From NCBI RefSeq assembly GCF_004010195.1, contig NC_057718.1, positions 86,481,514 to 86,545,513 of the forward strand: DNA of 64,000 nucleotides, read 5' to 3'. Under the pieces are notes generated by a model, which saw only the letters and a program-made list of their open reading frames with translations, made no database searches and was not told where the DNA came from. Made by a program: the position numbers and the translations under genes. Shown piece after piece: positions 25,266 to 63,733 of the stretch. This DNA is from Chiloscyllium plagiosum. Taxonomy: Eukaryota. How positions within the stretch are numbered: position 1 is the first letter of the stretch; the number at the start of each line of letters is the position of its first letter.

Positions 25266-25685
25266 NNNNNNNNNNNNNNNNNNNNNNNNNNNNNNNNNNN
25301 NNNNNNNNNNNNNNNNNNNNNNNNNNNNNNNNNNNNNNNNNNNNNNNNNNNNNNNNNNNNNNNNNNNNNNNNNNNNNNNNNNNNNNNNNNNNNNNNNNNN
25401 NNNNNNNNNNNNNNNNNNNNNNNNNNNNNNNNNNNNNNNNNNNNNNNNNNNNNNNNNNNNNNNNNNNNNNNNNNNNNNNNNNNNNNNNNNNNNNNNNNNN
25501 NNNNNNNNNNNNNNNNNNNNNNNNNNNNNNNNNNNNNNNNNNNNNNNNNNNNNNNNNNNNNNNNNNNNNNNNNNNNNNNNNNNNNNNNNNNNNNNNNNNN
25601 NNNNNNNNNNNNNNNNNNNNNNNNNNNNNNNNNNNNNNNNNNNNNNNNNNNNNNNNNNNNNNNNNNNNNNNNNNNNNNNNNNNNN
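25266..25685. other. Assembly gap (420 N)
   Basis: Run of N. Confidence 1.
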
Positions 25686-25800
25686 TCCCCTCCCCTTTCC
25701 CCTCCCCCCGTCCTCTTTCCCCTCCCCCCGTCCTCTTTCCCCTCCCCATCATCCACCCACACCCCCCACTATCACCATTACTCCCTTCCCTTCCCCTTTA
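25686..25800 (+). repeat. Polypyrimidine tract with a tandem 20-mer TCCTCTTTCCCCTCCCCCCG next to the gap
   Basis: About three visible copies; the sequence left of the gap (25135-25265) is also pyrimidine-rich. Confidence 0.85.
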
Positions 25801-25814
25801 TCATAGGGAGGGGG

Positions 25815-26580
25815 GGGGGTGCGATCCCGGGTGAGGGTGAGGGTGAGGGTGATGTTGCGGGTGATGTTGCGGATCCTCCTCCCTCCGCCGTGCCTCTGGT
25901 CCCTCCTCCCCGGGTGTGAGTGAGTGAGTGAGTGAGAGAGTGTCCCGGCGGTGACTGTGTGGGTGTGTGCGCGGAGCCTCCCCCTCGGGCCCTCGGGGGT
26001 GGGCCCTGGGCCGGACCATGAGCCGCTGAGTTGTTGCTCGGCCGCCGCTGGGAACCATGCCCGGGCCTTGGGCGCTGTCCTACCGGCTGCTGGCGGCCTG
26101 CGTGTGCCTGAGGGCGGCCGGAGCCGTGTCCGAGTCCGGGCAGCGGCAGCGGAGATCCGGCGGAGGCTGGGGCCCTCAGGCCGAGGCCTTGGGCCGCTGT
26201 GAGTCCGAACTGAGCCCGATGCAGGACTACATCATCCGGACCCGGGATTCGCTGAACGCCGGCGCCGCCTTCCTGAGCTCCCCGAGCGGTATCAGCAGCC
26301 CGGCGGAGTGCGTGCGGGCCTGCTGCCGCCTCCCCGGCTGCACGGCGGCGGTGGTGGAGCGGGGGCGGGCCAGAGCCGGGGGAGGAGGGGGAGGCCTGGA
26401 CTGGGCCCGGGGCCTGAAGCTCAGCCACAACAGCGCGGCCGCCCTCAGCTGCTACCTCTTCAACTGCACGTACCGAGGCCGCGATGTGTGTCGCTTCTCC
26501 CCGCATCAGGGATACAGCAGCTTCACCCGGGGACACAGCGGCAACTGGCAGCCGGGGCCCGGTCACCATGGCAACCGTGA
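25815..26580 (+). promoter_or_regulatory. LRP11: CpG island covering the LRP11 promoter, 5'UTR and exon 1; contains (GGGTGA)n and (GTGA)n microsatellites
   Basis: Very GC- and CpG-dense stretch in an otherwise AT-rich, CpG-depleted window, overlapping the first coding exon. Confidence 0.85.
26057..26576 (+). CDS. LRP11: LRP11 exon 1: signal peptide and MANSC domain
   Basis: YIIRTRDSLNAGAAFL...CVRACC...C...CYLFNCTYRGRDVCRF...GYSSF matches the LRP11 MANSC domain. Donor AACC|GTGAGG gives 520 nt, phase 1, compatible with exon 2. Confidence 0.92.
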
Positions 26581-30948: not shown

Positions 30949-31106
30949 GAAATGATGAAGCCCCCCACTGTGATGCAGGTCAGGATTTGGCCTTGTTACT
31001 GCCCACTGACTGGGTGCTGCTGGACGGGAGAGGCAGTTCTGACGATCGGGGAATTGTCCGATATGAATGGACGTTACTACAAGGAGATCCGTCAGTTGAT
31101 ATGAAG
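30949..31106 (+). CDS. LRP11: LRP11 exon 2: PKD domain, first half
   Basis: Acceptor tccggcag|GA; NDEAPHCDAGQDLALLLPTDWVLLDGRGSSDDRGIVRYEWTLLQGDPSVDMK; donor AAG|GTATTT; 158 nt, phase 1 to 0. Confidence 0.96.
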
Positions 31107-37632: not shown

Positions 37633-40063
37633 CAGAGGAACCTCGATTTATCCGAACAGGATCTGAAAGTCCCATAAAACTATTACAGCAAAGAAGTGCT
37701 GGGGACAATGGTGCAACGATCTTTGTCTTTTGTTTACAGGGTAAATGAGGATTACTTGCACTGAAGAAGAATAGATTAGATTACTTACAATGTGGCAACA
37801 GGCCCTTCAGCCCAACAAGTCCACATTGACCCTCCAAAGAGCCACCCACCCAGACCCATTCCCCTACATTTACCCCTTCACCTACGGGCAATTTAGCATG
37901 GCCAATTCACCTAACCTGTGGGAGGAAACGGGAGCACCTGGAGAAAACCCACGCAGACACGGTGAGAGTGTGCAAACTCCACACACAGTTGCCTGAGGCG
38001 GGAATTGAACCCGGGTCTCTGGCGCTGAGAGGCAGCAGTGCTAGCCACTGTGCTGCCTAATTGCAACAAAGAGGTGTTAATGACACTGGTGCAACAATCT
38101 CAGTCAGTCAATTGTAGCAATTTGAAATAATTTTAACACACAAAAATGTCTGACATGCTGAAGGATTTTAAATGCAGGTCAAAATCAGTGGGGTCTTCAT
38201 TCCCTCTACAACTTTGTTCCGAGTACATATCTGATATAACTGATCAGGTTTGTTGTACGTACTTACCATGTTTGTGAAGAGAAAATGGACAGCAGTGACA
38301 ATTGTACAGAAAAGCGAGATCCTACAATCTTGATTGTGGTGAAAAGGCACCAAAGATTGCACAAGAATACAACATTGGAATAGCAACAGTGTCTGACATC
38401 AGGAAAGCAAAACTGGTGATTGAGAAATTCATCAACCAAAGTGACACTTCAAATGCATTAAAGAGAAAATCCATGAAGCCAGCAAAAGATGAGCAACTTG
38501 ACCAAGCTGTATTTTTGTGGTTTTCACATCAGCATGAAAAGGGGATTCCCGTATCTGGCCCGATGATACTAGAAAAAGCTGCCAGTTTCCATGAACGACT
38601 CCACGCCGGTGAGTCTGATCACAGATCATCGGGCTAGTTACAGCACCTCAAACATCATGGCATCGGGCAACTCGGCGTTCTTGGAAAGCAGAAGTCCATG
38701 GTTGACAGCACCGTGGAAGGATACAGACAGAAACTACAATCCATCATTCATGAAGGAAAGTATGAACTTGAGCAATTGTACAATGCTGTTGAAAGTGAAT
38801 TGTTTTGGTGTGCACTGCTGGACAAAACACTTGCATCCAGTGTGGAAAAGCAGGTGTCAGGACTTGTAATGCAATGCTTCTGCACTTTAATTTTCTCTGT
38901 GTCAGCGCCACCGGCACTCATAAATATACCGCTGGTCTGCATTGGGTGATGTGCTAATCCATGTCACTTTAAGAACTCACTTCCCGTGAAGCACAAAATA
39001 AGGCATGGATGATATATCCACGTTTTTCATCCTGGTTTCAGGAAGAATTTGTTCCTGATTACATTTGGCAAGCGCTGGACTTGAGCAATGTGCCCCTCTG
39101 TTTGTTGACAAGGCAGGCATACACAATGAAAAACAACCGATTAGAATCACCAGATGGAGCTATCAAGTGTTTGTTTTTACCACCAAACATGACTTCAAGG
39201 TTACAGCTACTCGATCAGGATATCATCGCAATAATGAAAAATGTTGCGTGCTGTCCTTGGTGAAGGCAATGCAGACAAAGGAGTGCAGGAAATAATGAAG
39301 GCATTCACAGTCAAGGCTGCTTTGTTCATAATTGCTGAGTGTTGGGACCGCATCCAGTCATTGACAATCGCCGAGTGATGGTACAATGGCGTGCATGTTG
39401 TTAGCCATGACAATGAAGAGGACCCCCTTCGAGATCAAAGGCTAACCACTGACATCACCAAGAACTGCAGACAGCTGGGATTAGGAGAGTTTGTAGAGGC
39501 TGAGATCGATGCTTGGGTAAACTGTGACAACAACATCGGAATAGAGACACTCGGCAATGATCAGATAGTCAATGTAAGAACAGTTGGAAAGTACAGACGC
39601 CATGGATGGTAAGGAATACCAGATACCAACACCACCTCCAGTCCCCATTAATGAAGCTATCGACAGTTTGTGACTTTTCATTGAGTGGTCTGAAGCACAA
39701 GATGAAGTCGATGCTGTTGATGCATCTTCGTCAAATGTTATCATTCGCAAAAGAAAGGAGAGCAGATCCTCAAACAACAGTGGCTGTATATTTTATTCGA
39801 AAATAATAGCCAACATCCACCTCAATGAATTTTATTTACACAAAAAGTGATTTGATTTGTAAAATATCATGATTTTTTTATGCGCTATCTGATGTTTACA
39901 AATTTTAGTGATTGAATGAAATCACTAAAATCTCTGTAAACGTGCTTTTAACGCAATTACGTGCAGTAAGGCTTCCTTTGTTTAAGGTCAAATCAATTAT
40001 TCGAATAATAAATTATCTGAACGAGAAACTGCCCATTGCCTTCGGATAATCGAGGTTCCTCGG
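37633..40063 (+). mobile_element. pogo/Tigger-family DNA transposon with a decayed transposase (about 38268-39806)
   Basis: TIRs cagaggaacctcgatttatccgaa (37633-37656) and ttcggataatcgaggttcctcgg (40041-40063); TA TSDs; CENP-B-like HTH LDQAVFLWFSHQHEKGIPVSGPMILEKA; DDE-region motif FLPPNMTSRLQLLDQDII; frameshifts and stops. Confidence 0.92.
37770..38058 (-). mobile_element. HE1-like SINE nested in the Tigger element
   Basis: Minus-strand tRNA-like head at about 38000-38057 and tail at 37770. Confidence 0.85.
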
Positions 40064-42484: not shown

Positions 42485-42626
42485 TCTCCACAGCCTGGCA
42501 TGTTGAGATTGAGTGGTTTACGAGAGGGCATGTATGTGATTCGGTTGTCAGTCACTGACACGATTGGACAAAAGAGTGATGACAATGTCACTGTGACTGT
42601 GATGCCACCAAAGCGCCAAACAACAG
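42485..42626 (+). CDS. LRP11: LRP11 exon 3: PKD domain, second half (not in the ORF track)
   Basis: Acceptor tttttag|TCT; SPQPGMLRLSGLREGMYVIRLSVTDTIGQKSDDNVTVTVMPPKRQTT; donor ACAG|GTTAGT; 142 nt, phase 0 to 1. Confidence 0.95.
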
Positions 42627-49953: not shown

Positions 49954-50079
49954 ACTGTACAGGAGTTTGTTCCCGATATCAGTTCATCTGTGATGACGGC
50001 TGCTGCATCGATATCACAATGGCTTGTGATGGGACAGCCCAGTGCCCTGACAAATCTGATGAAACCTTCTGCCAGAGCT
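49954..50079 (+). CDS. LRP11: LRP11 exon 4: LDL-receptor class A repeat
   Basis: Acceptor tttcatag|AC; DCTGVCSRYQFICDDGCCIDITMACDGTAQCPDKSDETFCQS; donor T|GTAAGT; 126 nt, phase 1 to 1. Confidence 0.96.
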
Positions 50080-50208: not shown

Positions 50209-50382
50209 TTAATGTAGGCCGTAAGTCAATTACACATGCAACACTTGCTGCTAGCTCAGAGCAAGATAGGGCCATGTGGCCATCTTCTGACAGTTTCCAC
50301 AAGACCTCAACAGTGAACCATAAACCAACACAGTCATCCAGAACGGAAGGGATGGACAAACCCAATCCTAGCCAGCTTCCAG
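50209..50382 (+). CDS. LRP11: LRP11 exon 5: Ser/Thr-rich linker
   Basis: Poly-T tract then ctaaag|TT; open frame FNVGRKSITHATLAASSEQ...KPNPSQLP (compare recalled human LGLDRKMVTHT); donor CCAG|GTATGT; 174 nt, phase 1 to 1. Confidence 0.85.
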
Positions 50383-52744
50383 GTATGTGAGATCAAGTGA
50401 TTTTGAAGAGAAATTGACTGGCATTTGGACTCCCCAATGTAGCAGACACTGTATCAATACTGCTGTATCAAATATATGAAACTTAAATAAGCACAAGCCT
50501 ATCACAGCTTCATTTGGAACCTGTGTTGTCGGGGCCTTGGATGGTGAGGAGGTTAGAAGGACAGATATTGCTTCTGCATTTTCATGGATAAGTGCTTTTA
50601 AAGCAAGAAAGTAGGTTAGAAACTCAACAAGAGAAGAAAGCACACAGAATGAGGGCAAAGAGTATGTTCTAAAATTGTTGAGCTCTGTAGAGCGCCAAGT
50701 TAAACTATCTGTGCTTTCCACTGAGCTTGCACTTTGCACTGGGAAGGGTGGGTGTCTGCTTTACTGAACACTTACATTCAGGCCACATGCATGACCCTGA
50801 GCTTCCTACTGCTGATCATTCATATTTTGCACCTTGCTCACACTCTAATCTTTCTGATCTTGACCCTTATGCTGTTCCAGTGAAACATTACACAAGCTTG
50901 AGGAGTAGCATCTCCGCTTTCGACTTGGCACCCCTGCAACTTTCTGGATTCAACATTTTAAGTTCAACATTTTAGATTACAACTATCCCTGTATCCCTGG
51001 TAAGACAACACTTCTCACTGTACCTCGGTACATGTGACAATAATAAATAAAATAAAATAAAATATCCCCATTTTATTTTGTGAGGCTTTGTTTCGGCAGT
51101 TCAGTCTTTCTTGATTTCCAACCATTAATACCTCATCCGGACATCTGATCATGGTAATCACTACAATGTAATCTTGTGGGGAAAGGCCTTGAAACTATTC
51201 TTTAGACCCTTTGACCTTTTGAACTATGAAATCTTTTGACATTTAATCCCTCTTGCCCATTACCTTATTCCACACTTATCTTTTGTTTGTCTTTCCTATT
51301 CTCCTCTTGCTCAAAATGCACAACATTTCCAACTGATGAAAGGTCTCAGATGTGATATTTTCTTTTCCTCTCCACAAATGCACATGGTAGTGCCATGCTG
51401 AGGGAGTACTAATCCTTTAGCTGGTACATTAAACTGAGACCCTTATTGCGCTGCCTGTTACACTGCTCCAGTTAAATATTTGTGATACTATTGAAAACTA
51501 AGTAGGTATGCCCTTCCAGTAATCCTTCCTGAACAAACTGTTAGTAAATCCAGACGAGTTGGTCATGAACTAGATTCAAGCTATGCACAAAATAAGTGTC
51601 ATGTTTATCTACACAACTTGAGCCATAGTACTTAAAACAAACATATTCCGCATGAAATGCTTTATCCTGTTTCTGAGATTCTGTATACGTGCATTTCATA
51701 TATAATTGTTAAACGTGCAGAAATGGCAACAAGATTCAGCCCTTCAAATCAGCTTTACCCTTCAATATGATCATGACTGGTCACCTACATTAATAAACAT
51801 CTTCTTGAACAATCCCCGCATCTCTCGATTATGTCCTGACAAGTAATTTCCTAACCACAGATAGAAGGATAACTAGTCTGGTCACATGTGTAACCTTCCA
51901 ATCTAAAGAACAGTTTCCAAGGTGAGAGAATTTTGGAAGATATAGTTAGGGCACCAGGAATGTTTTCAGTTTCTTTTAAAACTATGAATAGTTTCTTTGG
52001 AATATCTGACATACTCTATAAATACTATTGTGAAATACATATTAAGCATGTTAGCTAATATTCCCCAATCATTTTATTGGTAATTTAATAATTATCAGTA
52101 TTTAAGGAGCTCTCTTTGCACCTGATCATTTTCTTTCACAAAGCGATTATAAAAGATTTGTGTTGATTTTGACATCCTTTGTCAGTTTCTTGTCATACTG
52201 CTTTTCTTTTGTAGCCTTTGCATGGTTCTCATTTACCAGAACCTACACATTGTTTTTGATTTTTGTCTGCTGCTTCTCTTAGTTTTTGTTGTCTCTGACC
52301 TTTTTAAATATCCATGGATTCCTTTATGGACCTTATCTTTCCCATAAGGTAGTTCTTCCTTAACGTGATGGTTGCATTCTTGTGTAACCTTCACATTATA
52401 GAAAAATCACGCATTAGAAACAGTATTTCAAGTTTTGGCAATGTAATCGCGTTACAGCCAACACATGTTGTAAAAATTCGCCCTTTAGAAAATGTGTCTC
52501 CAATTCACAATTGCATTACAGCAAATTCATGTTAACAAAATATGCATTATAGCAGAACGACTGTAGACTGGTTCTGTAACCTCTCCCACTGATGTGTTAT
52601 TTTACCTATTAACAGATTTACTCCATTCATAGAACAAGTCACCGTTACTTAATTTTGGAATCTCAGTGGGTGCTGCGCATTTCTACCTTTCAAACATTGA
52701 CTGTCACCTTACTTATTTCCTTGCTGTTTGTTTTGAATTATCAT

Positions 52745-53199: not shown

Positions 53200-53700
53200 C
53201 AGCAGTGTCACTGGTGGAATCAGATTGTTTGGAGCTCTGGTTGCCCCCGCTGGAGCCTCCGCAAGCTGCAGGAAAGCGTGAACCTCCACCAGCACTCGGG
53301 GCAGGCGAATGGCCTCTCTCCGGTGTGGGCCAGCTGGTGGGCCAGCAGGCAAGAGGAGCGGGTGAACCCCCTCCTGTATTCGCTGTGAACCCACCAGTGC
53401 CTCAGCAGGTTGGAACAGTTGCTGAAGACCTTCCTGGACTTGGGGTATTTGAAGGGGTGGCATGGATAAAGCCCTTCCCACACTCGGAGCAGGAGAACAG
53501 CCTTTCCCTGGTGTGACTGCTCCGATGAGCCTCCAGGACAGATGGGAAACAGAAGCCTTTCCCACAGTCGTCCCACTTCCACGGTTTCTCCGGGTTCTCC
53601 ATGGGCGAAGCTTCAGCTGCCTGCAGACATATGTACAACCCCTCCCTGCTGTGAATTCTTCTTTCCAGGCTATATAACTGTTTTGTGCCCCACATTCAGT
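53200..53700 (-). pseudogene. Degenerate intronless C2H2 zinc-finger relic, antisense within LRP11 intron 5
   Basis: EKPWKWDDCGKGF...HRSSHTRERLFSCSECGKGF and HQLAHTGERPFACPEC in different frames; frameshifts and lost Cys/His. Confidence 0.85.
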
Positions 53701-55171
53701 GTGCTGTAACAGTAGGGTGTCTCATCCAGTCCCACTGATGCTGAAAATACTGCAATAACCTTTTCAGCTTAGCACCCACCTCCCACTTACCAGTTTAAAG
53801 TCCATGATAGTGCCCTGTTTATCCCTTCTGCTATGGCCCTGCTCCCAGCCTGGAGGTGGAGCTTATCCCAGTTATCTTGATCCTTGTGCTAGTATCCATG
53901 AAAAGGAACCCAGCTGTCCCAAACCATATCTTTAGTCACATGTTCACTTCCCTGATATGTTTTCTCCCTAGTTCAGCTTGCGTGCTACTTGAGTAATGCT
54001 ATATGCCTTGAGGCCTTCAATTTAGCGCCTTGTCCCTGGCAGTCCTGCTAATCCTTAATATAGTTGGATCTAATAAAGATGGATTTTCCCACACACTCTC
54101 CAATACCTATTCAGTTCAGTTTGAGCTGTCCTTGGCACCATGAAGCCTCTAAACCATGTGTAACACTTTATCCCATTTACAAATGATGCTGTCTGTCCCT
54201 TTAAGTATCCATTTCCCATAATCACTAAGCTTTTCCCTTCCTCCCATTTTTATGGCTGCGTCCTGCTCCAGGTGTCATTGCCTACATTTACACAGTCCCT
54301 CCAACAATCTGTCAATGATCTCTTTGCAGCAATTCTCGTCGACTTAGGTAATGCAAACCTCTGCTGTCCATATCGTATCTTTTATCAAGTCCTGCACGCC
54401 CTGTGTTTGCTGATTTACACTGAGTTCTCATTTGTAAATATCTCATCCTTGATTTCAAATCTATCTCTATAACCTCCTCCAACCTACAATCCTCAAAGAA
54501 CACTGTGTTCTTTCAATTGTGACACTTTTTTTAACCCCCAGTTTCTTTTGCCCTTTATTGATGGCCATATCTCTGCTGTCTAAAACCTAAGCTCCCAAAT
54601 TCCCTCCCTAAACCTCTTCATCTTGATGTATATATGTCTCCTCCTTTATTAGCTACCTTTTTGATCAACATTCATAGGACATGGACGTCACTGTTATTGC
54701 CCTTCCCTAATTGTCCAAATTGCTGTAAGCCTGGAGTCATATTTAGGCCAAACCAGGTAAGGGAAGGTGGTTTCCTTCCTTGATGGGCATTAGAACATAG
54801 AATAGTACAGCACAGTACAGGCCCTTCGTGTTGTGCCAGCCTTCTATCCTACTAGATGGGTTTGTCCAACAATGGATTCAGTCATCATTAGCCTCTTAAT
54901 TCCAAATTTTTTGTAGATTCAAATTCCATCATCTGTTGCGGCGGGATTTGAACCCGGGTTCCCAGAATATTACCTGGATCCCTTGATTAGCAGGCCAGCA
55001 ATAATGCCAGTAATCCAGCACCTCCCCCCCCCCCCCCCCAACCCCTTAACCCTTTATTTACCTCTCCTTATGAGGCTCAGTGTCAGTTTTTATCTGATAA
55101 GGTGCATCTGTCAAGTGCTGTGGCTTTACCACATTAACTATGATACATCAATGCCAGGTTTTTTCTTGCAG

Positions 55172-55342
55172 AGTATTGCTTGGTTCCTCCTGCCCCAGGT
55201 CCGTGCGAGGGCCACTTCCCTCGCTGGTATTTTGATAGTGTCTCAAAGACCTGCAGACACTTCATCTATAGTGGGTGCCAGGGCAATCGGAATAACTTTC
55301 TACAGGAGCTGGATTGTAAAAATGGATGCACAGGAGTCCAAG
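55172..55342 (+). CDS. LRP11: LRP11 exon 6: Kunitz/BPTI domain
   Basis: Acceptor ttttcttgcag|AG; EYCLVPPAPGPCEGHFPRWYFDSVSKTCRHFIYSGCQGNRNNFLQELDCKNGCTGVQ with six canonically spaced Cys; donor CAAG|GTAAAC; 171 nt, phase 1 to 1. Confidence 0.9.
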
Positions 55343-58711: not shown

Positions 58712-58813
58712 GTGATAACCCTTTAGAGACAAGCACAGTGGAAACAAGTGAAGCTGATGTTCTGATGTCTAAGATCAGCCATGGAAGAGGAATTCACCCA
58801 GTCCCAGAGTCAG
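58712..58813 (+). CDS. LRP11: LRP11 exon 7: juxtamembrane stalk
   Basis: Acceptor tttgttcag|GT; GDNPLETSTVETSEADVLMSKISHGRGIHPVPES (compare recalled human HPAPET); donor TCAG|GTCAGT; 102 nt, phase 1 to 1. Confidence 0.9.
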
Positions 58814-59702: not shown

Positions 59703-59857
59703 GTGCTGTGCTACCCCTGGCCCTGGGGCTTGCTATCACCGCCTTGCTCCTGCTGATGATTGGCTGCCGGCTGCAGTTGGTGAGGCACAGACTGAAGAAG
59801 CTCCGCCCCATAACATCGGAGGAGTCGGACTACCTGATAAATGGCATGTACCTGTGA
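59703..59857 (+). CDS. LRP11: LRP11 exon 8: transmembrane helix, cytoplasmic tail and stop
   Basis: Acceptor cctgacag|GT; GAVLPLALGLAITALLLLMIGCRLQLVRHRLKKLRPITSEESDYLINGMYL*, nearly identical to the recalled human LRP11 C-terminus. Confidence 0.97.
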
Positions 59858-60712
59858 GCCAGAAATGGTGCCTCTTAATAACAATCACCGTAGCAGTGTG
59901 CTTCTCGATGTAAAACAATTCAATATGCTTGTGTGTGTTTGTCCGAATCAATATGTGGAGCGCAGTAGAACCCTTTGATCTTATTACTTCCCGGTCACAC
60001 AGGTATATCTGGCAAGTCCTGGGCGTACTTAAAAACAAAGCACAGTTTTCAGACCAAGCCAGTACTGTTGCCATAATGATTGACTACTACATGGCTGTCT
60101 CTAAGATTGGTGGTCAATCGAGAAATTTTAATTCTTCACCTTGCTGTGAAACATCTAAACAAGTCAACTTCTGCTGCAGTCTCACGTGCTGAATAAGGTT
60201 TGTGCTGTCTGACAGGAAGTCTGACTATCCTAACAAACTGTTCTGTGAGGTCCCCCTACTGTGTGATCCTGTGGTGGGTTGGCACTGGGTGAATTCTTGA
60301 CCCCCTCGCTCCCTGAGGAAGCTGCATTTCCTCCCTGTCTGGGGACAGGTTTCTGTTTCCCCTTCTTAATTGCCCTGTGAGCAGTTTCCACCTTCCCCCT
60401 GTCCAATAATTTCAATGTAAAGTTGTGCCAGTGTTTGTCCCACTCGCTGTGTAGTTTCTGGGTCTCTTATCCTGGAGACATTTAATAACAGTCATAAAGT
60501 AAGCAGCAAAATTGCAGAATATCAGGGCTGAACTGATGATAAAATGCACCATTGGAGAAATTCCTAGCCTAGAAGGACAGCACTCAGCCTATTGAGTGTG
60601 TTAGTTTAGTATAATATATTGTTGCAAACTGTTAAACTTTATAAAATTGGAAGAGTTGCCTTTTCAAAGATTCCACTGAATACCAACAGTTCTTGACTCC
60701 TGGTTCATCTCT

Positions 60713-60718
60713 AATAAA
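60713..60718 (+). terminator. LRP11: Candidate LRP11 polyadenylation signal
   Basis: AATAAA about 860 nt after the stop codon; motif only. Confidence 0.35.
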
Positions 60719-62617
60719 TGGCATTTACCCAGTGTGACTCTGGATTTGATTATCCAACATTATTACTTTATCTCATGCATTGTAATAATGACCACCCAAA
60801 TAACCTGGTGTGATGATATTGATTGACGGATATGCATTGGTCAGGTCCCTGGGAAACACTTATGCTGTTCTTTGAAATAGTCCAAGTGGATCCTTTTACA
60901 TCCATTTGGAAAGGAAGGCTTCAATTTATTGCCTCATCAAAAAAAAACACTTCCAACCGTGCAGTATTTCATTGACTGTGCACTGAATTGCCAGCTCAGA
61001 TCATGTCCTAATGTCTTTGCATTGGGACGAAGGAAAGACAACACTGCATGCAGTTAGGATAGTGCCCAGAGGAGGAAGAATGAAGATGTTGGGCATCATG
61101 AATGAGACAAGCAAGAAGGAATGTTAGAAGAAATTTTGCTCAATCTACATTCAAGGTACTTTACATTCATATGGTTTAGTTAACCTTCCTTGCCAAAATT
61201 ATGTCTATTGTATGGAAGGAAAGATTTGAGTGAGTTCAGGGGTTTAAAGCATTTCACGTTTAGCTGACCTTGAATCAGGTAGCACTGGTGTCACCCTACT
61301 GCTAATTGAGCCAGTGAGATCGATATGCAGAGGTCACAGCAATGTCACATACAGAAGACGTTATGAACTCAGTGCCTGAAAGGTTAGCACAGTGGAGGAA
61401 AATTACCCTTCAACCATTTGTTCCTATTCAGCATCAGTAAGGCAAGAGATCTATGCAGTGTCTTTAAAATGTAAATGTTTCAGGCATTGCAGATAATATC
61501 AAAGGGTAAATCTTGTAGTGTGTACTGGGATCATTTATGCACTAAACTAGATATGGAGATCAGTTTCCCTTCCCTGAACGAGTTTACGTTCATTTTAACA
61601 TGCAAAATTGACAAATTTTCAGGTAATTTTACCTGGTGCTAGCCCACAGATAACCATATCCAATTTACCAAGGGCTTTGAACTGTCAGTCTCTATGGAGG
61701 AGCACTCCAAGACCATAATTACTACGATTTTAGAAGATTGAAGGCCCAATAACAATAGCTGCAGAACAGATTACAGGTCAAAAAATAAGAATAGTTTGTA
61801 CGATAGGTACTGCGATAATCATGACAACTTTGTATGCTTGTATCACTAAAGCCGGTTTGGGGGGTGGGTGGGGCTGGAGGCAGTAATGTTTCTAGCTTTA
61901 TTTGAAATTCATTTATCTCAAAACCTAATGGAACAAATTTCCATGAAGCTTGGCACATCAGTGTGCTGTGGCCTCAGGAAGAGCTGGTTTGTTGTGGGCA
62001 GGAATGTTTTTTTTAAAGGAGTCTCTAGTATTGGGAGATAGGGCAAATTGACATGGTTTCAGAATTATGGATTGTCTTAGCTGAAATGGTGGAACTTGTT
62101 AGTAGTCAAAATATGTACAGATATTTCACAGCAGGTTGTTTGATGTGGATTGGTCTGCAAGCTCCTGATAGAAATGTTTCTTGTTTTCAACTGTGTAGTT
62201 ACAGAGCATCAACCACAAGGAAAATCCTTAAGCCACTGTGTACTGCTTTGATGGCCCTACTTAAGAAAGGATATAATTGCAGTAGAAGCAGTTCAGAGAA
62301 GGTTGACACCATTTATTCCTGGGATGATTCTTATGAAGAAAGGCTGAATAGTGTTGGCTTATACCCGTTCAGGTTCAGAAGAAACTTACATATTTTAATA
62401 AGATCAAAAAAGTAAGATCAAATGGGGACTTGACAGAGTTATACAGCAAGGAAACAGACACTTCAGTCAAACTCATCCATGCCAACACATATCCTAAACT
62501 GATCAAGCCCCATTTGCCAATATCCTTTTACATGGTGAACATGAAGAGGATTCCCGATGGGGGGAGTTCGAGAACTATGAGATGTGGTTTAAAAATTATG
62601 GGTGTTCCCTTTTTAAG

Positions 62618-63733
62618 CCTGCTCTTATATTCAATGCTCTGACCAATAAAAGAAAGCATACTAAACACTTTCTTCAATATCCTATCTACCTGAGACTGCA
62701 CTTTCAAGGAACTATGAACCTGCACTCCAAGGTCTCGTTGTTCAGCAACGCTCCCCAGGACCTTACCATTAAGTGTATAAGTTCTGCCCTTATTTGCCTT
62801 TTCACAATGCAGCACCTCACATTTATCTAAATTAAACTCCATCTGCCATTCCTTGGCCCATTTGATCAAGATCCTGGTGTACTGTGAGGTGACCTTCTTC
62901 ACTGTCCATTACACCTCCAATTTTGGTGTCATCTGCAAATTTACTAACTATACCTCCAATGTTCACAACCAAATCATTTATATAAATGACGAACAGCAGT
63001 AGATTCAGCGCCGATCCTTGTGGCACACCACTGGTCACAGGCCTCCAGTCTGAAAAGCACCCTCTATCACCAACCTGTGCTCTAGTTTCAAGCCAGTTTT
63101 GTATCCAAATGGCTACTTCTCCCTGTATTCCATGTGATCTAACCTTGTTAACCAGTCTACCATGAGGAAACTTGTCGAACGTTGACATATTGCAGTTGTA
63201 GAGGACATTGGTTAATCGACTTTTGGAATATTGTGTGCAATTCTGTCTCCTTCCTGAAACTTGAAAGGGTTCAGAAAAGATTTACAAGGATGTTGCCAGG
63301 GTTGGAGGATTTGAGCTATTGGGAGAGGCTGAATAGGGTGGGCTGTTTTCCCTGGAGTGTCAGAGGCTGAGGGGTGACCTCATAGAGGTTTATAAAATTA
63401 TGAGGGACATGGATAGAGTAAATAGACAAAGTCTTTACCCTGGGTGGGGGAGTCCAGAACTAGAGCACATAGGTTTAGGGTGAGAGGGAAAGATTTAAAA
63501 GGGACCTAAAGGGCAGCTTTTTCACACAGAGGGTGGTGCATGTATGGAATGAGCTGCCAGAGCAAATGGTGGAGACTGGCACAATTACAACATTTAAAAG
63601 CTATCTGGATAGGAAGGGTTTAGAGTGATATGGGTTAAGTGCTGGCAAATGAGACTCTTTAATGTAGGATATCTGGTCAGCATGGACAAGTTGGACCGAA
63701 GGGTCTGTTTCCATGCTGTACTTCTCTATGACT
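62618..63733. mobile_element. CR1 LINE with an inverted 5' segment (minus 62618-63181, plus 63182-63733)
   Basis: Minus: FDKFPHGRL...GVPQGS...FADDTK...QSIEYKS. Plus: continues with a degenerate LQL.RTLV...LLEYCVQ...LERVQKRFTRML and the 3' tail. Confidence 0.85.

Follow-up and report, generated by a model that had tools for sequence, protein, structure and literature searches.

The LRP11 gene of the bamboo shark Chiloscyllium plagiosum raises the question of what a Kunitz domain with an acidic P1 residue is for, in a protein whose human counterpart, an orphan linked to cancer, resembles HAI-1, is described as lacking its Kunitz domains and has been proposed as an opponent of HAI-1 (PMC12580866). 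In the window, i.e. the whole stretch of 64,000 nt that was analyzed, eight exons on the forward strand translate into 515 aa that match RefSeq XP_043552386.1 (C. plagiosum LRP11 X2) exactly, which confirms the gene assignment made in the first-pass annotation. Coding exon 1 (26057..26576) encodes the signal peptide and the MANEC domain, exons 2 (30949..31106) and 3 (42485..42626) the first and second halves of the PKD domain, exon 4 (49954..50079, phase 1-1) the LDL-receptor class A domain and exon 5 (50209..50382, phase 1-1) a Ser/Thr-rich linker. The Kunitz cassette, exon 6 (55172..55342, phase 1-1), is followed by the stalk in exon 7 (58712..58813, phase 1-1) and by the coding part of exon 8 (59703..59857), with the transmembrane helix and a tail ending YLINGMYL-stop. 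The domain order is accordingly MANEC, PKD, LDLa, linker, Kunitz, stalk, TM and tail, and all the features by which LRP11 is recognized (MANEC, PKD, one LDLa, TM and the YLINGMYL tail, the last common to shark, mammal and bird LRP11 rows) are present. Human LRP11 (MANEC-PKD-LDLa-TM) is the orthologous gene, with the same domains in the same order, but without the Kunitz domain.

As initially described, exon 6 is intact: its 171 nt lie on the forward strand between the linker (ending at 50382) and the stalk (starting at 58712), with good splice sites (acceptor ttcttgcag, donor gtaaac), phase 1 on entry and exit, and an open frame. Translation bore out the six-Cys Kunitz domain with the loop GPC-E-GHF and the motif FIYSGC. 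The spacing C-x8-C-x15-C-x7-C-x12-C-x3-C is identical to that of BPTI and, together with the match to Pfam Kunitz_BPTI (E 1.7e-20, 73.4 bits against a cut-off of 21), places the domain in PF00014. This Cys pattern is found a single time in the window and in 0 of 100 base shuffles. The P1 codon GAG (Glu, BPTI position 15) is at 55207..55209 (+), and AGT at 55270..55272 (+) encodes Ser at BPTI position 36, where most Kunitz domains have Gly. The CpG in which the Glu codon begins (55206-55207) is probably a mutational hot spot. A structure model of the domain alone (pLDDT 61.8) showed a hairpin (15-21, 26-32) and a helix (45-54) and was too rough for the loop; the 50 listed matches of a fold search with this model were all Kunitz chains, but with E above 0.001 and an rmsd of about 5 Å. 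The full-length AlphaFold model, with pLDDT under 50 across residues 269-465, was of no use for domain packing.

Splicing into the exon was assessed in four of 24 listed sequencing runs. Three of them were contig runs, of which two were guessed to come from RNA and the third was of unknown type; the fourth was a raw-read RNA run of which about 2% was read. The joints 50382>55172 and 55342>58712 (GT..AG) were each detected in one contig in each of the three contig runs and in one read each in the RNA run, and in every contig run a contig of 1.6-1.8 kb links exons 4 to 8 via GT..AG joints. A pseudo-exon or chance open reading frame at 55172..55342 is ruled out by these joints, the shuffle test and the identity to RefSeq.

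Exon 6 could be skipped in frame, as had been anticipated, and RefSeq models this event: its omission reproduces X3 (XP_043552387.1) exactly. The skip joint 50382>58712 was not among the joints listed from the four runs and contigs lose rare forms, so skipping is documented here by the RefSeq models. In 7/7 same-species pairs checked (two Chiloscyllium, Stegostoma, Leucoraja, Amblyraja, Lissotriton and Ahaetulla), the RefSeq skip and inclusion models differ by exactly these 57 residues. An alternative acceptor at 55158 extends exon 6 by 14 nt (55158..55171, +). Paired with an optional 61-nt exon (51861..51921, +) it stays in frame and gives X1; used without that exon it gives X4, a frameshifted 439-aa product. 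The 61-nt exon was not among the joints listed. Both the Kunitz exon and its skipping are already present in automatic gene models, and the exon is not new to databases.

Trypsin-type Kunitz inhibitors have Lys or Arg at P1, and the shark domain has Glu. The consequences can be gauged from a deep mutational scan of BPTI, which identified hot spots at position 15, near-absolute for trypsins, and at position 36, for chymotrypsin and mesotrypsin (PMC8532158). Measured on trypsin, chymotrypsin and mesotrypsin, respectively, K15E costs +8.9, +3.0 and +1.6 kcal/mol and G36S +3.4, +1.0 and +2.0 kcal/mol; the double mutant K15E_G36S, which has the same Glu15 and Ser36 pair as the shark domain on another scaffold, costs +11.4 +/- 2.6, +3.7 and +1.6 kcal/mol (PMC8532158). 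Asp, Asn and Gln at position 15 are similarly costly on trypsin (9.4, 8.6 and 8.1 kcal/mol lost; PMC8532158), and wild-type BPTI starts from a Kd of 1e-14 M (PMC6962383). The original argument that Glu at P1 speaks against trypsin-type inhibition is therefore upheld by the K15E value, and the shark domain is unlikely to be a tight trypsin-type inhibitor. By analogy with the double mutant, it would probably be non-inhibitory, yet it is conserved.

Tethering to the membrane, together with the PKD and LDLa domains, might offset the poor P1 and leave the domain useful against a trypsin-like surface protease, e.g. matriptase. Neighboring domains do tune the binding of KD1 in HAI-1 (PMC12940448), whose architecture LRP11 shares. 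Nevertheless, the 9-11 kcal/mol or so lost in BPTI (PMC8532158) correspond to six to eight orders of magnitude, and an Arg-to-Gln change at P1 cripples KD1 of TFPI-2 (PMC1937028). Such residual inhibition is very improbable.

The domain is not confined to the bamboo shark. PF00014 was found in 115 of the 120 best homologs (out of 525 matches to the whole protein), the five exceptions being elasmobranch entries, which justifies the caveat that the domain might already be annotated elsewhere. Other tetrapods were covered by an alligator-centered search (best 120 of 477, with five rows left out of the counts) and by cluster look-ups. At the protein level, ray-finned fish, coelacanth, salamanders, turtles, alligator and most lepidosaurs have a Kunitz domain at the same position, which rules out a shark-specific gain or a stray Kunitz gene. 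The automatic RefSeq LRP11 models of non-mammals (e.g. XP_043552386.1, XP_041038321.1, XP_078505507.1) have the same exon and domain, with PF00014 precomputed.

The proposed loss in mammals holds in so far as the domain was annotated in 0/44 therian proteins (marsupials and placentals; no monotreme among the rows), but a loss in mammals only is not supported: it was annotated in 0/65 bird proteins (ratites, galliforms and neoavians) and was likewise absent from 7/7 gecko proteins (5 species), three caecilian proteins (2 species) and one frog protein. The sole Narcine LRP11 model also lacks the exon. These counts reflect protein annotation and not a genomic search, and an exon may have been missed in single models, above all those of the frog and Narcine. 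Because alligator, turtles, other lizards and salamanders retain the domain, it was likely lost independently in birds, mammals, geckos and amphibian groups. The Latimeria chalumnae model has four near-identical tandem Kunitz domains and no LDLa match, which may be an expansion or a model artifact. A profile search of 50% representatives yielded, in its best 150 rows, largely PKD-repeat and multi-Kunitz proteins; the 13 rows examined comprised LRP11s and one multi-Kunitz protein, with no HAI-1, lamprey or invertebrate ortholog among them.

The P1 residue separates these groups. Among the best 120 homologs it is Lys in 82 and Arg in 2 of 84 ray-finned fish proteins (14 grouped by exclusion), and Lys in 5/5 turtles, the alligator and a newt; it is Lys in the axolotl too, and Arg in all four coelacanth copies. 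With such a basic P1, the domain of bony fish, salamanders, turtles and crocodilians is predicted to inhibit trypsin-like enzymes. In sharks and rays, taken as one row per species (n=17), P1 is Glu in 12, Asp in 3 (all skates), Gln in Mustelus and Lys in Stegostoma, i.e. acidic in 15/17 species, and Ser36 is found in 13/17. The acidic P1 first noted for the bamboo shark is thus correct but an incomplete description: Glu is a shark-and-ray trait, shared with the tuatara, and Lys is the P1 residue of the majority of LRP11 Kunitz domains. Similarly, FIYSGC does replace FxYGGC, but YSGC is not unique to sharks, as it occurs in medaka and in one coelacanth copy beside a basic P1; for that reason Ser36 is weak as a unique mark of decay. 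Lepidosaurs (n=13) have Asn in 11 rows, Glu in the tuatara and one broken domain. The snake reactive loop, Ser-Cys-Asn-Arg-His-Leu, is farther from an inhibitor than that of lizards. The zebra shark protein (Stegostoma tigrinum LRP11 X1) combines Lys at P1 with an extra Cys at position 35; the whale shark has Glu.

Bony-vertebrate LRP11 and both human HAI-1 domains (Arg in KD1, Lys in KD2) have Lys or Arg at P1, and the alignment is therefore most simply read as a basic ancestor whose P1 changed twice, once in elasmobranchs and once in lepidosaurs. No chimaera, lamprey or invertebrate LRP11 Kunitz domain was found among the sequences compared, so the inferred direction of change derives from bony vertebrates and human HAI-1.

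With modest confidence, we favor the view that the shark domain is an ancestral jawed-vertebrate trypsin-type inhibitor that has turned into a folded, non-inhibitory binding module. Such a history would join an intact cassette exon, spliced into mRNA and placing one Kunitz domain between LDLa and the membrane stalk, with the same domain at the same place in bony-vertebrate groups, as seen at the protein level. From an ancestral P1 that was probably basic, tight inhibition would have been lost since, judging from the BPTI mutants, the acidic S1 pocket of trypsin-like proteases should not accept Glu15 and binding should be weakened more by Ser36. The fold appears to be still under selection and would probably offer a docking surface for an extracellular partner, with exon skipping as a putative on/off switch. 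Glu is then a lineage trait that likely disarms the domain.

There are precedents for Kunitz domains as binding modules. The second Kunitz domain of TFPI-2 has Glu at P1. The known examples, TFPI-2 KD2 and HAI-1 KD2, differ from the shark domain in that they adjoin an active Kunitz domain, whereas shark LRP11 has one only. TFPI-2 KD2 binds prosaposin (PMC11554837), and HAI-1 KD2, which modulates KD1, has little activity of its own against matriptase and HGFA (PMC12940448).

Some points count against a binding module. The zebra shark, with Lys at P1 and Cys at 35, would fit it poorly, and two others each suggest a different course. Firstly, the inhibitor-like loop is kept and P1 stays acidic instead of drifting at will, and a protease with an acid-preferring pocket would fit this pattern equally well. 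The domain might then have been retargeted to bind in the canonical manner to a protease cutting after Glu or Asp, be it a glutamyl endopeptidase of microbial origin or an enzyme of the host whose S1 pocket is basic. An acidic P1 in 15/17 species, with a Glu-to-Asp exchange in the three skates, speaks for this course, as does the conservation of the remaining loop (among 16 elasmobranchs, Gly12 in 16/16, Gly at P1' in 15/16 and Pro19 in 16/16); moreover, a protease site can accommodate BPTI with Glu at P1, as in the crystals of PDB 1t7c. Gln and Lys at P1 in two sharks are at odds with it, and Ser36 lowered binding to all three proteases in the BPTI scan (PMC8532158). In addition, genes of the chymase locus, home of the Asp-ase granzyme B, were not found in cartilaginous fish in the survey of PMC4646688, which left one elephant-shark enzyme (NGE triplet) unassigned. 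A retargeted inhibitor is distinctly unlikely.

Secondly, relative to PKD and LDLa, the domain evolves faster in elasmobranchs than in the groups with Lys at P1, which fits decay. It is still constrained: 16 elasmobranchs share on average 80.7% identity over Kunitz, against 61.0% over the linker and 64.0% over the stalk, though this is below PKD (89.2%) and LDLa (93.9%); in the groups with Lys at P1, Kunitz identity is about level with that of PKD. The ratio of Kunitz to PKD+LDLa tree length reached 2.27 in elasmobranchs (5-95% interval 1.31-3.67), compared with 1.07-1.36 for three Lys groups and 1.33 for lepidosaurs, with overlapping intervals. Over 60 bootstraps the ratio exceeded that of the Lys groups in 90-95% of pairings for elasmobranchs and in 51-69% for lepidosaurs. 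This is a hint, not proof, of relaxation of the domain in sharks and rays.

Under weakening selection, the domain would be a vestige that need only fold harmlessly and is heading for loss as in other lineages. This highest Kunitz-to-core rate would agree with such a fate, as would the sole Narcine model without the exon, the frequency of skip models, the absence of the domain from all gecko proteins and the Arg at P1' beside Asn at P1 in 5/12 lepidosaur rows (snakes). Against decay, the domain is retained in 17 species of both sharks and rays, with a shark-ray identity of 71% versus 50% and 48% for its flanks; the included form was assembled in 3/3 contig runs; and lepidosaurs, which also have a non-basic P1, lack the rise in rate. 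A vestige is unlikely, and a conserved binding module remains the preferred reading for the shark.

The first-pass annotation had called the domain positionally equivalent to the second Kunitz domain of HAI-1 (MANEC-PKD-KD1-LDLa-KD2-TM). This is true of its position, after LDLa and before the membrane, but its sequence is closer to human KD1 (60.2 versus 46.4 bits for the single sequence; 75.0 versus 58.8 bits with a 19-sequence profile, human HAI-1 alone being compared). The domain is KD2-like by position and KD1-like by sequence, but such scores could also arise if human KD2 has evolved more rapidly. Among PDB structures, HAI-1 (5h7v, E 3.8e-55) matched best across MANEC, PKD, LDLa and Kunitz. 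According to a review, KD1 specificity is determined by P1, P3, P1' and the Phe at P3' (PMC12940448). The KD1 loop R-G-S-F-P-R-W resembles the shark x-G-x-F-P-R-W, sharing Gly at P1' and Phe at P3', but P1 is Glu where KD1 has Arg and KD2 has Lys, and P3 is Pro (Pro or Ser in LRP11) where KD1 has Arg. The two proteins also differ in that shark LRP11 has one Kunitz domain only, with none between PKD and LDLa (exon 3 joins exon 4 in the model), and in that about 60 linker residues precede it.

A broader proposal is put forward tentatively: LRP11 may be an unrecognized third membrane-anchored HAI-type inhibitor, in which a Kunitz domain with Lys or Arg at P1, as found in ray-finned fish, coelacanth, salamanders, turtles and crocodilians, would regulate serine proteases of the cell surface, with splicing as the switch. 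P1 would have been retuned or disarmed separately in sharks and in lepidosaurs, and the exon deleted separately in birds, mammals, geckos and caecilians, leaving human LRP11 as a scaffold without its warhead. As a candidate of this kind, the fish form with Lys at P1 would be a better lead than the shark form.

The shark exon is real, already known to annotation pipelines and, apparently, unstudied. No publication on an LRP11 Kunitz domain was found in a search of mostly open-access main text, which a published remark may have escaped, and no functional study of the non-mammalian RefSeq models was found. An eel Lrp11 paper (PMC9935665) has 0 mentions of Kunitz, PMC11126030 deals with snake SPINT1 and not LRP11, and the relevant-looking matches in PMC11772769 concern an LRP1 peptide. 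The value of the locus lies in comparison and not in the discovery of an exon that was already annotated. Human LRP11 likely once had a Kunitz domain of its own, and an inhibitor-type P1 persists in medaka, axolotl and turtles. The Lys form, which most non-mammalian vertebrates have, and the repeated exon loss are more interesting than the shark Glu. Nature thus provides a series of one domain with Lys, Arg, Glu, Asp, Gln or Asn at P1, skipped, lost or, in the coelacanth, fourfold, and the comparison offers a direct test of the original purpose of LRP11.

Several other features of the window were noted. At about 25270-25690, 420 N lie directly upstream of the GC-rich first exon, and the promoter region is incomplete in the assembly. 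Intron 2 contains a Tc5/pogo-type transposase DNA-binding fragment (38299-38634; Pfam HTH_Tnp_Tc5, E 1.8e-08), and the open reading frames beside it, up to 39609, had no Pfam match. In intron 5, a degenerate C2H2 zinc-finger fragment, below the Pfam cut-off, lies on the reverse strand at 53223-53612, in a repeat-rich region covered by many contigs. Downstream of the coding part of exon 8, transcript contigs extend beyond 60600, and AATAAA at 60713 and 62645 provides candidate poly(A) signals (59857-62650).
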